Below, in pieces: positions 42,001 through 45,000 of a stretch of DNA of 64,000 bases (positions are counted from its first letter, which is position 1; the number at the start of each line of letters is the position of its first letter). The position numbers are program-made. The stretch is from NCBI RefSeq assembly GCF_988243305.1, contig NZ_OZ547136.1; one strand, written 5' to 3'.

Positions 42001-45000
42001 GATCAGGATTATGGTCGTAAAGGCAGCTCCTTCGCGCCGTTCTTTGCGGTGGAAAATGTTGCCACAACCAATGGTACGTATGTCCTTTCACGTCTCTCTG
42101 GCGCAGCCATGTTAACCGTAACGATGGTAAGAAAAGCGGATTACAGCGGATATCGTTTGTACATCACCCCAGAGATGGAAGGCTACCCGGCAGATGAAAA
42201 TCAAGCCGCTGCCTATATGAACAAGATTATCGAAAAAGAGATCATGCGCGCACCGGAGCAGTACCTCTGGATCCACCGTCGCTTTAAAACGCGCCCGGTG
42301 GGAGAATCGTCGCTATACATTTAACAAACTGCTCTTACTCTTTCCCTCCTCAAATCAGCCATAATAACCTCATGGTTTTTATGGCTTTTTTCTTAAGGTT
42401 TTTTCCTTCGCTGAATCTCTAATTATTACCGTCAGAAATTAAACTGTCGCCGATATGAGACACCTGTAAGTTACTAAAAGTAAATAAGAAAATGCCTCTT
42501 GTCTCGTTTTAGTTTTAGGCGTACATTAGCGCCGTCTGGAGCAGTTTAGCTCAGAATTCTGGGGTGATGCCCACGGTAAAATACAGGACTTTTAAGGTCG
42601 TTTTGCCCGGTGTCAACTCACTGTATCAGGTGTAATGAAGTCATTCAGGCGTAACAGTAATTACGCGGAGAGATGTAAAGTGAAATATTTCTTTATGGGC
42701 ATTTCTTTTATGGTCATCGTTTGGGCCGGTACTTTTGCCCTGATGATCTAAAAGCAAACTGTGCAATGAAAAACAGGAGCCATCTGGCTCCTGTTTGCAT
42801 TTCTGGCGATGGTGTTTATTCCGCGTTTTCGTGAATATGTTTGCTGCTGGCGGGTAGTAAACCGTCGGCACGGAACATCGCTTTAATTCCACGAATCGCC
42901 TGACGAATACGGTCGCGGTTTTCAATCAGTGCAAAGCGAACATGCGTGTCGCCGTAGTCGCCAAAGCCAATCCCCGGAGAGACACAGACCTTCGCTTCGT
43001 TCAGCAGCTTCTTGGCAAATTCCAGCGAGCCCATGGCAGCATACGGTTCCGGGATTTTCGCCCAGACATACATCGAAGCCTTCGGCATTTCGACCATCCA
43101 GCCCGCTTCATGCAGCCCTTTAACCAGTACATCACGGCGGCGTTTGTACTGTTCGGCAATATCGCGCACGCACTGTTGATCGCCCTCCAGCGCCGCAATC
43201 GCTGCCACCTGCAACGGCGTAAAGGTGCCGTAATCGTGATAGCTTTTAATACGTGCCAGCGCGCTGACCAGCGTTTTGTTGCCAACCATAAAGCCGATAC
43301 GCCAGCCCGCCATGTTGTAGCTTTTCGACAGCGTAAAGAACTCGACCGCCACATCGCGTGCACCCGGCACCTGCATGATTGACGGCGCTTTCCAGCCATC
43401 GTAGACGATATCGGCATAGGCCAGGTCATGGACCACCAGCACATCGTAGCGTTTCGCCAGCGCCACAACCTTCTCAAAGAATTCCAGTTCCACGCATTGC
43501 GCGGTTGGGTTCGACGGGAAGCCGAGGATCATCATCTTCGGTTTCGGATAACTTTCGCGAATGGCGCGTTCCAGTTCGTTGAAGAAATCGACACCTTCCA
43601 CCAGCGGCACTGAGCGTACCTGCGCCCCGGCAATCACCGCGCCGTAAATATGAATCGGGTAGCTTGGATTAGGCACCAGTACAGTGTCACCATGATCCAG
43701 CGTCGCCAGCATCAGATGCGCCAGTCCCTCTTTCGAACCAATGGTGACGATAGCTTCTGATTCCGGGTCGATCTCGACGTCGTAGCGATCCTGATACCAG
43801 TGTGAAATGGCGCGACGTAGCCGCGGAATGCCGCGTGAAGTGGAGTAACCATGCGTGTCCGGGCGCTGGGCCACCGTACATAATTTTTCGACGATGTGCG
43901 GCGGAGTCGCACCGTCCGGGTTACCCATACTGAAATCGATAATATCTTCGCCGCGCCGACGCGCAGCCATTTTCAGTTCAGCGGTAATATTAAAAACGTA
44001 GGGCGGGAGACGATCAATGCGCGTAAAGCGACGTTCAGGGCGAGTGTCAGCCATAATTTCCTCAGATTAACGTTAGCGCCCGGACCGTCCGAGCGACGCT
44101 GCCACGATGGTGGCTGTTTTGAAAATAGCCTGATTAATTTCTGTCTGTCCAGCGTTTTAGAACATTTTTATCAATGGCTTTAAATGAGGAACGCCACTTC
44201 AAAAACAGGAAATTTATCTGCGCTAACAAGAAAATTACCACTCATTTTATTAACATTATAATTTCAATAAATTTACCAAGCAGATGTGCATTATCAAGAG
44301 ATGCATTGCTAATACACCATTTATCTTTCAATCCCCTTTTAAAATTGTGGTTTTTCCTCAAAAACGGCCTGCTGGTCATCAGCCTTCAGGTTACCTATCA
44401 TAGAGGTTTAATCCTTATTCAGAGTCACCCGTGCACGAAATATTCAACATGCTGCTGGCGGTCTTCGATCGGGCAGCGTTAATGCTTATCTGCCTGTTCT
44501 TTCTCATCCGTATCCGCCTGTTTCGCGAACTGTTGCACAAGTCGGCGCACTCCCCAAAAGAGCTGCTCGCTGTTACCGCCATTTTCTCGCTGTTCGCCCT
44601 GTTCAGCACCTGGTCCGGCGTTCCCGTAGAAGGCTCGCTAGTGAACGTTCGTATTATCGCGGTGATGTCAGGCGGGATTCTGTTTGGCCCGTGGGTAGGC
44701 ATCATTACCGGCGTGATTGCGGGTATTCACCGGTATTTAATTGATATCGGCGGCGTGACGGCGATCCCCTGCTTTATCACCAGCATTCTGGCGGGTTGTA
44801 TATCGGGCTGGATCAACCTGAAAATCCCCAAAGCACAGCGCTGGCGCGTCGGTATTCTCGGCGGCATGTTATGTGAAACGTTGACCATGATTCTGGTGAT
44901 TGTCTGGGCACCAACTACCGCGTTGGGGATCGATATCGTCTCTAAAATCGGCATTCCGATGATCCTCGGTAGCGTCTGTATCGGCTTTATTGTGCTGCTG

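Follow-up and report, generated by a model that had tools for sequence, protein, structure and literature searches.

The ypdK locus

The window, a stretch of 64,000 nucleotides of contig NZ_OZ547136.1 (assembly GCF_988243305.1), carries a short reading frame between lpxP, upstream on the same strand, and alaC, downstream and convergent. The frame and the elements around it are listed in Table 1. The preliminary description had proposed here a GTG-initiated ORF of 23 codons, had named it ypdK and had placed it between these two genes, as is the case. Direct reading gives the frame MKYFFMGISFMVIVWAGTFALMI (GTG AAA TAT ... ATC TAA), with the product V(M)KYFFMGISFMVIVWAGTFALMI followed by the stop, and the coordinates of the RefSeq CDS, ypdK (b4680), 'membrane protein YpdK', are identical. 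The observation of the 23-codon frame is thus confirmed as real. The name is supported by this annotation and by the match to the NCBIfam equivalog NF033437, which scores 57.5 bits (E = 9.4e-16; curated cutoff 30 bits) and runs end to end over the full profile, residues 1-23 on positions 1-23 of 23. Family membership was judged by this score and by a convergent alaC across a short gap, and both are found, the latter in E. coli K-12 as well as in 75 of 80 species loci.

Table 1. Elements of the ypdK locus, in window coordinates
Feature	Position	Strand	Description
Conserved non-coding block	42405-42475		Upstream of promoter; kept in genera without lpxP as upstream gene
Conserved promoter	42475-42534	+	UP-like stretch, -35, -10, GC-rich discriminator region
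P1	42535-42555	+	Candidate 5'-end hairpin UCUGGAGC aguuua GCUCAGA; weaker support
P2	42560-42620	+	Long imperfect leader hairpin
P3	42649-42666	+	6-bp stem-loop GCGUAA cagtaa UUACGC, ends directly at Shine-Dalgarno
Shine-Dalgarno GGAGAG	42667-42672	+	9 nt between GGAG and GTG; conserved GATG next
ypdK CDS	42680-42751	+	GTG start, 23 codons, TAA stop; predicted single transmembrane helix
Bidirectional intrinsic terminator	42773-42803		Common to ypdK (+) and alaC (-)

The ORF is the same gene as E. coli ypdK, already catalogued; sequence, length, coordinates and neighbours are all identical to those of YpdK (b4680; NF033437), and no difference is seen. The annotation is present in 5422 of 5426 complete E. 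coli genomes in RefSeq, with a median of one place per genome. With reference to Hemm et al. 2008, PMC3009722 counts ypdK among 18 small ORFs, newly reported at that point, for putative single-transmembrane peptides. As the gene has stood in catalogues since 2008, the ORF itself adds nothing new; it counts as a true positive, since a genuine gene of 23 codons, missed by ORF tracks, was recovered from the sequence alone. Chromosomally epitope-tagged YpdK was reportedly seen by immunoblot in the 2008 Mol Microbiol study of Hemm and co-workers. Searches of Pfam, PDB and PADLOC gave no match, no solved structure in the PDB contains the peptide, and ARAGORN called no tRNA.

Conservation of the reading frame

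A frame of 23 codons is by itself not beyond chance, because 62 ORFs of at least 20 aa overlap positions 41000-44800. This abundance in 3.8 kb, with a hairpin close behind the frame, is what could speak for a chance ORF, or for a leader peptide regulating a downstream gene by attenuation. What lies beyond chance is conservation, assessed without bias in 80 species genomes at loci anchored on alaC. The ORF stands tail-to-tail with alaC in 75 of the 80. It starts with GTG in all 75 ypdK loci and is 23 or 24 codons long throughout. Its variation is codon-periodic, with entropies of 0.56, 0.17 and 1.12 at codon positions 1, 2 and 3, and pN/pS is 0.27 in the ypdK frame as against 1.17 and 2.21 in the other two. 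The gene is therefore protein-coding and under purifying selection, and no chance ORF. Conservation of the frame with synonymous-biased substitution in Enterobacteriaceae, the check named in the preliminary description, was thereby run and clearly passed. In Enterobacteriaceae, Erwiniaceae and some Serratia, the comparison shows the frame to be conserved and subject to purifying selection. No co-oriented gene follows ypdK; the hairpin is a terminator shared with alaC, which comes next in convergent orientation. The readings as chance ORF or attenuator leader peptide are already refuted, their probability being negligible.

Eleven residues of YpdK are invariant, namely M1, K2, Y3, M6, G7, S9, W15, G17, T18, F19 and M22, and three more nearly so. 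The invariant G7, S9, G17 and T18 are each encoded by all four synonymous codons. The hydrophobic core varies freely and lies between two invariant patches, M-K-Y-x-x-M-G-x-S and W-x-G-T-F-x-L-M. Judged from the aligned loci, GTG at 42680 is the right start codon, because an in-frame stop lies at most five codons upstream in 36 of the 75 species, and an alternative in-frame start is absent in 48. A 38-aa version from ATG 42635 was rejected, being specific to E. coli and not conserved.

The gene is essentially chromosomal, single-copy and strictly syntenic. Of 72,556 plasmid records, 14 contain a match to ypdK, and at least five of those are chromosome-sized. The constancy lies on the alaC side; the product of alaC is a soluble aminotransferase. 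Upstream neighbours vary among the species loci. A linkage of lpxP and ypdK was rejected, as the two adjoin in just 19 of 75 loci, and 12 loci with ypdK lack ypdA within the 3.5-kb flank. The non-coding block upstream of the promoter contains in most genera the inverted repeat GTGTCG-N8-CGACAC, diverged in E. coli to CTGTCG...GAGACAC; that it is a transcription-factor site is a guess.

Promoter, leader and terminator

The promoter comprises an A/T-rich UP-like stretch (42475-42494), a -35 element TTGTCT (42499-42504), a 17-nt spacer and a -10 element TACATT (42522-42527) followed by the GC-rich AGCGCC. Among the 75 loci, 59 have a promoter block CTTGT...GTACATTAGCGCC at a distance of 72-192 nt before the GTG; Erwiniaceae carry a GTAAATTAGCG variant of it, and the block is kept whichever gene stands upstream. 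In published tiling-array data, a transcript at 2494795-2494997 overlaps ypdK (2494943-2495014) and starts 148 nt upstream of the GTG, at window position 42532 (PMC3009722). Transcription would accordingly begin at about 42532-42536, corresponding to about 2,496,773-2,496,777 in MG1655, a placement given by the resolution of the array and by a promoter that matches the consensus at just 8 of 12 positions. An automatic promoter scan, at this 8/12 match, did not call the ypdK promoter. The CTCTCTATACTCAG block was rejected as a proximal -10 element and is read as the 3' arm of P2, because it covaries with the GAGGUGAUGC block and has diverged in E. coli. The promoter shares CCTCTTGTC around the -35 (cCTCTTGTCa) with rrnB P1, as well as the A/T-rich upstream stretch and GCGCC directly past the -10; it differs in the -10 itself (TACATT vs TATAAT) and in the spacer (17 vs 16 nt). 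This likeness is to be taken as a lead only.

The preliminary description had seen a terminator hairpin just downstream of the frame, and a 9-bp GC-rich stem, ACAGGAGCC-AUCU-GGCUCCUGU (42773-42794), does lie 21 nt past the stop codon, between an A-run (42769-42772) and a U-rich tail (42795-42803). The 71-nt stretch 42745-42815, which holds it, has a folding energy of -24.6 kcal/mol (z = -3.5); none of 200 shuffles was as stable. In 73 of 75 species a hairpin with 6 bp or more (median 11 bp) follows about 19 nt past the stop, and the stem sequence varies by lineage (GGAGCC, GGCGCC, GGGGCGAC). A simple terminator scan did not call the hairpin at 42773-42794; the probable reason is that the stem continues into the A/T runs on either side. 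At the other end, a terminator-like hairpin and T-run behind lpxP are read directly at 42358-42395. Because of this hairpin, the promoter kept regardless of the upstream gene and the tiling-array transcript, ypdK appears to be its own monocistronic transcription unit of about 270 nt, with inferred ends. The old sRNA tpke70 was rejected as the ypdK transcript, since the sequence published for it lies on the minus strand, from 42388 leftwards, antisense to the 3' end of lpxP.

The transcript would carry a leader of about 145 nt. At the base of P2, GGGGUGAUGCC (42560-42571) pairs with GGUGUCAACUC(A) (42609-42620). This base (helix 3) has compensatory changes in 9 of 11 pairs, and slid controls are only 31-44% paired. 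The per-species folds of P2 have a mean z of -2.2, and RNAalifold recovered the hairpin on an independent alignment of 20 sequences. Its apical part differs in length between species; the apex was considered as a terminator or attenuator, which is unsupported, as the U-tract there is base-paired to an A-tract and some genera lack the apex. P3, also found independently by RNAalifold, has 86.5% of cells paired against 76.9% in shuffles (0/500) and 46 double-sided changes against 17, with many G-U pairs. P1 (helices 1-2) is 64-73% paired with some compensatory changes; it was not recovered by RNAalifold and in isolation carries no energetic signal (mean z = -0.23). The stretches between P2 and P3 are conserved and single-stranded. 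Conservation of the leader extends over Enterobacteriaceae, Erwiniaceae and Serratia and does not depend on which gene lies upstream.

The GGAGAG expected upstream of the start is present. Within Enterobacteriaceae, GGAG does not vary and GATG hardly does, and the distance from GGAG to GTG is 7-9 nt in 72 of 75 loci; the GATG region in E. coli reads ATG-TAA (42673-42678). The 5' UTR structure does not sequester the Shine-Dalgarno or start, as the conserved helix stops immediately before the former, whose mean pairing probability with upstream sequence is 0.09. The E. coli Shine-Dalgarno is predicted to pair with the coding region; across species the probability of such pairing averages 0.49, heterogeneously and with changing partners. 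Sequestration by the coding region was dropped on account of this value and the shifting partners, which are expected of U-rich hydrophobic codons. The helices P2, P3 and possibly P1 would leave the Shine-Dalgarno unpaired, and they probably set mRNA stability or translation.

An sRNA-sized transcript with a strong terminator, covariation-supported helices, conserved single-stranded stretches and a promoter resembling those of stable RNAs could also be read as an RNA that is itself the functional product, that is, a base-pairing sRNA of about 270 nt, or a dual-function RNA of the AzuCR/AzuC or SgrS/SgrT type in which the ORF is secondary. That the RNA is purely non-coding is excluded, since conservation is codon-periodic and the low pN/pS is confined to one frame. 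Rfam, searched on both strands, gave no family match, only sub-threshold chance matches (plastid psbJ 3'UTR, a snoRNA). AzuCR/AzuC and SgrS/SgrT have, as ypdK, a short terminator-ended transcript with a tiny ORF behind a long structured 5' region, a likeness that comes from transcript architecture alone, the ends in ypdK being placed as above. An RNA as the main product is considered unlikely.

The conserved, folded leader may be the sole part of the locus that is new. Unlike the ORF, leader and promoter are not in the existing ypdK annotation, as far as checked in Rfam and in the RefSeq record, which has no annotated feature for the leader. Tentatively, and with rather less than even confidence, the leader may be an undescribed cis-regulatory RNA that tunes peptide synthesis or, as in AzuCR, the body of a dual-function sRNA. 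A cis-regulatory leader could act by way of transcript stability, processing by RNase III or coupling to growth rate. If so, the ypdK transcript would be more than a simple mRNA, with a promoter like rrnB P1 feeding into a leader of maintained helices.

The peptide and its proposed role

As the preliminary description had held plausible, YpdK is a small hydrophobic protein: the mean Kyte-Doolittle hydropathy of residues 4-23 is 2.15, and K2 is the sole charged residue. From its composition, YpdK would form one hydrophobic helix just spanning the inner membrane. By the positive-inside rule, Lys2 would be cytoplasmic and the C-terminus periplasmic. A single binding face is not evident, because the conserved residues do not cluster on one side of the helix (moment 0.195 vs 0.131 ± 0.066, P = 0.18).

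Several of these properties are also those of type I toxins, known from the pairs ibs/Sib, shoB/OhsC, tisB/IstR-1 and zorO/OrzO. YpdK would then be a toxin that harms the membrane once it is made and of which the structured leader blocks translation, with an unrecognised antisense or trans-acting sRNA as antitoxin. Like Ibs, ShoB, TisB and DinQ, it is a tiny and almost wholly hydrophobic peptide encoded behind a long, structured 5' UTR. The ypdK transcript rises about 2-fold after UV (log2 +1.06; PMC3009722), a modest induction that recalls the SOS-linked tisB and dinQ. In contrast to these systems, ypdK is single-copy and strictly syntenic, with the few plasmid records given above, where a patchy, multi-copy or mobile distribution would be typical. 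It is under strong purifying selection in three families, and polar and small residues are among those that never vary, whereas type I toxins are patchy and fast-evolving. The consensus leader structure leaves the Shine-Dalgarno free, no antisense or antitoxin RNA family was matched in Rfam on either strand, and direct reading of 42400-42680 revealed no LexA box (CTGT-N8-ACAG). The promoter, moreover, resembles a stable-RNA promoter and not a stress promoter. A toxin is thus very unlikely.

With good confidence, the locus as a whole is best explained as the annotated ypdK, encoding a predicted membrane peptide, most likely a modulator, from what would be its own transcription unit with a structured leader. 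The gene would be transcribed from the conserved rrnB P1-like promoter about 148 nt upstream. Most likely, though this is the least certain step, YpdK would serve a larger inner-membrane protein as modulator or accessory subunit by packing its helix against that protein. The invariant residues, the universal GTG start, the stable pairing with the 3' end of alaC and the structured leader with its rrn-like promoter are handles for finding the function.

The proposed role follows the example of MgrB, AcrZ, CydX, KdpF and MgtS, bacterial membrane proteins of at most 50 aa that act on larger membrane proteins. YpdK has no sequence similarity to these in Pfam and PDB searches. It also differs from the MgrB/AcrZ/CydX class in being monocistronic with variable neighbours and in sharing no operon with a candidate partner. 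It nevertheless falls within the definition of the class, a length of at most 50 aa and one predicted transmembrane helix. As in the pairs MgrB-PhoQ, AcrZ-AcrB, CydX-CydAB, KdpF-KdpABC and MgtS-MgtA, the small partner is a single hydrophobic helix, and YpdK has in common with the MgrB/AcrZ/CydX class an N-terminal basic residue and conservation in enterobacteria.

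Identity of ypdK

The preliminary description had proposed that a 23-codon ORF starting with GTG, located between lpxP and alaC, preceded by GGAGAG and followed by a hairpin, is ypdK and encodes a small hydrophobic protein. All these elements are present in the window, as are the two neighbours, lpxP upstream in the same orientation and alaC convergent downstream. The ORF reads from GTG to TAA and translates as V(M)KYFFMGISFMVIVWAGTFALMI*.

Features of the putative ypdK transcription unit (positions in the window)
Feature	Position	Strand	Description
UP-like stretch	42475-42494	+	A/T-rich; precedes −35
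Candidate −35	42499-42504	+	TTGTCT; conserved block
Candidate −10	42522-42527	+	TACATT; conserved block
P1	42535-42555	+	Small hairpin at 5' end of leader; weaker support
P2	42560-42620	+	Long hairpin; in E. coli, base 42560-42571 with 42609-42620
P3	42649-42666	+	5-6-bp hairpin; its end abuts the SD exactly
SD	42667-42672	+	GGAGAG; 9 nt from end of GGAG to GTG
ypdK CDS	42680-42751	+	GTG AAA TAT TTC TTT ATG GGC ... ATG ATC TAA
Hairpin	42773-42794		GC-rich, 9 bp; stem ACAGGAGCC/GGCUCCUGU; 21 nt past ypdK stop

The hairpin is flanked by an A-run on its 5' side and by UUGCAUUUC on its 3' side. The 71-nt stretch that includes it (42745-42815) has a folding energy of −24.6 kcal/mol (z = −3.5), which no shuffled sequence out of 200 equalled. 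As the stop codon of alaC lies at 42816-42818 on the minus strand, the hairpin stands between two convergent genes.

A 491-nt regional query matched 5422 of 5426 complete E. coli genomes with 95-100% identity, and the annotation beneath the match was 'ypdK: membrane protein YpdK' in all 12 rows sampled from top to bottom of the ranking. The annotated RefSeq CDS b4680 (2,496,921-2,496,992 in K-12 MG1655) coincides exactly with the ORF, as does that of the best match, and both genomes have lpxP and alaC in the same arrangement. The NCBIfam equivalog model NF033437 'YpdK' scores 57.5 bits (cutoff 30) over all 23 positions; no similar entry for the peptide was found in Pfam, PDB or PADLOC. The initial observation is therefore confirmed and its interpretation as ypdK is supported. 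Among 72,556 'plasmid' records, 14 match ypdK, at least five of which are chromosome-sized; the gene is essentially chromosomal. ypdK is a gene already known: PMC3009722, citing Hemm et al. 2008, counts it among 18 newly reported small ORFs and describes it as a putative single-transmembrane peptide.

Conservation of the reading frame

The length of 23 codons alone is unremarkable. As many as 62 ORFs of at least 20 amino acids overlap 41000-44800, so that conservation is the deciding question. To avoid circularity, comparative loci were anchored on the neighbouring protein AlaC and not on the YpdK peptide. Among 80 species-representative loci, 75 have a full-length YpdK-like ORF just past the alaC stop codon on the opposite strand, with 23 residues in 50 cases and 24 in 25 (extra E, K, N or A). 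The contig of locus L003, which lacks the ORF, stops 53 nt after alaC. In Candidatus Pantoea haifensis (L068, 4790-4870), a 1-nt deletion in the T-run (TCTTTTTCGTG vs TCTTTTTTCGTG) shifts the frame: the gene has decayed to a pseudogene there, or else the homopolymer was misassembled. ypdK is absent from the alaC flank in L071, L072 and L080. The last (NZ_BDAC01000002.1) carries the label Pseudomonas indica and has no ypdK nearby; its AlaC shares 91% identity with that of E. coli, which for a Pseudomonas record is high enough to suggest that the locus was horizontally transferred, is a contaminant or is mislabelled.

Column entropy in the 66 distinct nucleotide versions averages 0.56 bits at the first, 0.17 at the second and 1.12 at the third codon position. 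Residues G7, S9, G17 and T18 are unchanging, and all four synonymous codons are used at each. By the Nei-Gojobori method, pooled pN/pS is 0.27 for the ypdK reading frame, against 1.17 and 2.21 for the two alternative frames. Both frame conservation and synonymous-biased substitution, the check proposed in the preliminary description, are thus observed. The codon-periodic entropy and the low in-frame pN/pS exclude a purely RNA-level cause of the conservation. Purifying selection acts on the YpdK peptide, and a chance ORF or a leader peptide is excluded.

The start codon is GTG in all 75 orthologues, from three families, and never ATG. That a weaker start is kept so strictly points to selection, either on how strongly the gene is expressed or on the local RNA context. 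GTG 42680 is the true start, since an in-frame stop codon is found at most five codons upstream (usually two) in 36 of the 75 loci and an alternative in-frame start is missing in 48. The ATG at 42635 (38-residue product) was rejected, being specific to E. coli. The distance from GGAG to GTG is 7-9 nt in 72 loci. A GATG right after the SD (42673-42679) is nearly invariant in Enterobacteriaceae, with the pattern GGAGnGATG. In E. coli it gives, 2 nt past the SD, a minimal start-stop (ATG-TAA); in other genera its ATG is out of frame, or in frame two codons upstream.

The sole stable neighbour is alaC, tail-to-tail in the 75 loci, with ypdA beyond it in 63. lpxP is directly upstream in just 19 loci (Escherichia, Citrobacter, Enterobacter group); other upstream genes encode an MFS transporter or are dipeptidase-like. 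No functional partner therefore emerges from the genomic context. In Erwiniaceae (loci L060-L081; Pantoea, Erwinia, Mixta), the upstream pair looks emrB/emrA-like by eye (MFS pump and membrane-fusion protein). On the E. coli K-12 map, a stretch of about 15 kb that holds evgAS, oxc/frc, yfdX and lpxP would separate emrKY from ypdK, which suggests an insertion in the Escherichia lineage.

Promoter and structured leader

Despite the changing upstream gene, Enterobacteriaceae share about 280 nt of conserved sequence 5' of the GTG. The strongest conserved block, CTCTTGTC-N17-GTACATTAGCGCC, holds the candidate −35 and −10 elements, the latter directly followed by the GC-rich AGCGCC. It resembles rrnB P1, fetched for comparison (aaatttCCTCTTGTCAgg...TATAATGCGCCacc), and in 59 of the 75 loci it was found at a distance of 72-192 nt before the GTG. 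Erwiniaceae have it in the form GTAAATTAGCG. An automatic scan did not call this promoter, as it matches the consensus at only 8 of 12 positions. A plus-strand tiling-array transcript (2,494,795-2,494,997) overlaps ypdK (2,494,943-2,495,014, old coordinates; PMC3009722 supplementary table) and increases about 2-fold after UV (PMC3009722). Its start corresponds to position 42532, 148 nt 5' of the GTG, in agreement with transcription starting 5-9 nt past the −10 element. No LexA box was seen when reading 42400-42680. As a hairpin and T-run at 42358-42395 resemble, on direct reading, the lpxP terminator, ypdK appears to be an independent transcription unit of about 270 nt, with a leader of about 145 nt.

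The uncharacterised sRNA tpke70 was rejected as the ypdK transcript: its 436-nt published sequence is 41953-42388 on the minus strand, antisense to the lpxP 3' end. It begins (42388) within the lpxP terminator-like hairpin and heads leftwards; current RefSeq K-12 annotation has no RNA feature at 41953-42388. A conserved non-coding block (42405-42475), 5' of the promoter, accompanies ypdK even where lpxP is not its neighbour, and may be a regulator binding site. In most genera it contains an inverted repeat, GTGTCG-N8-CGACAC, somewhat CRP-like (TGTGT-N7-TCACG). This repeat has diverged in E. coli, which departs from the enterobacterial consensus at 42440-42460, where the repeat is degraded.

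The leaders of 57 species, folded separately, gave a mean z of −2.2 (42 below −1.5) and a recurring architecture of three helices, P1, P2 and P3. The base of P2 is formed by the pairing of two conserved blocks, GAGGUGAUGC and, about 50-70 nt further 3', GCAUCAGCUC; the apex of P2 ranges from absent to about 45 nt and is thus too variable for an aptamer-like domain. Covariation was tested on the 24 pairs of these helices in a 57-sequence alignment, with 500 column shuffles and slid 3' partners as controls. The proportion paired was 79.6%, against 70.4 ± 0.6% in shuffles (0/500), and both sides had changed in 132 cells, against 58.5 ± 5.9 (0/500). Pairing fell to 31-44% when the 3' partners were slid. 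Compensatory changes occur in 9 of 11 P2-base pairs and all six P3 pairs, and frequent G-U pairs point to a sense-strand RNA rather than a DNA palindrome. RNAalifold independently recovered the P2 base and P3 from a fresh 20-sequence alignment; it did not recover P1, which in isolation gave no energetic signal. It is improbable that the ypdK transcript is a dual-function RNA.

The SD is unpaired in the consensus structure. Its pairing with the coding region, predicted for E. coli, is inconsistent across species and was rejected, as was a TATACT-like block as promoter, which is the P2 3' arm. E. coli departs from the consensus at 42609-42632 (CTCTCTATACTCAG to CTCACTGTATCAGG) and still retains the P2 base pairing via G-U pairs. 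No Rfam 15 family matches the leader region, and nothing is annotated there in the K-12 record. Only the conserved rrn-like promoter and the covariation-supported leader may be new.

Predicted peptide and mode of action

Hemm and colleagues reportedly detected chromosomally tagged YpdK by immunoblot in 2008. Since residues 4-23 have a mean Kyte-Doolittle hydropathy of 2.15 and Lys2 is the sole charged residue, the small hydrophobic protein is predicted to be a single-pass inner-membrane peptide with one spanning helix. Its N-terminus is probably cytoplasmic by the positive-inside rule. Among 40 distinct peptides, M1, K2, Y3, M6, G7, S9, W15, G17, T18, F19, L21 and M22 are invariant or nearly so, forming one N-terminal and one C-terminal patch, and at positions 10-14 hydrophobic residues replace one another freely. 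No significant clustering of the conserved positions on a single helical face was seen (P = 0.18).

Small size, hydrophobicity, a long UTR and the UV response would all fit a type I toxin, but ypdK is single-copy and syntenic, under strong purifying selection, has a free SD and is not carried by mobile elements, which makes a toxin highly improbable. ypdK is a conserved, selected 23-codon gene, led by an SD and ended by a terminator. The leading proposal, a tentative one, is that YpdK acts on or within a larger inner-membrane protein, which it would modulate or into which it would be incorporated. By analogy only, MgrB, AcrZ, CydX, KdpF and MgtS may serve as models for this mode of action.
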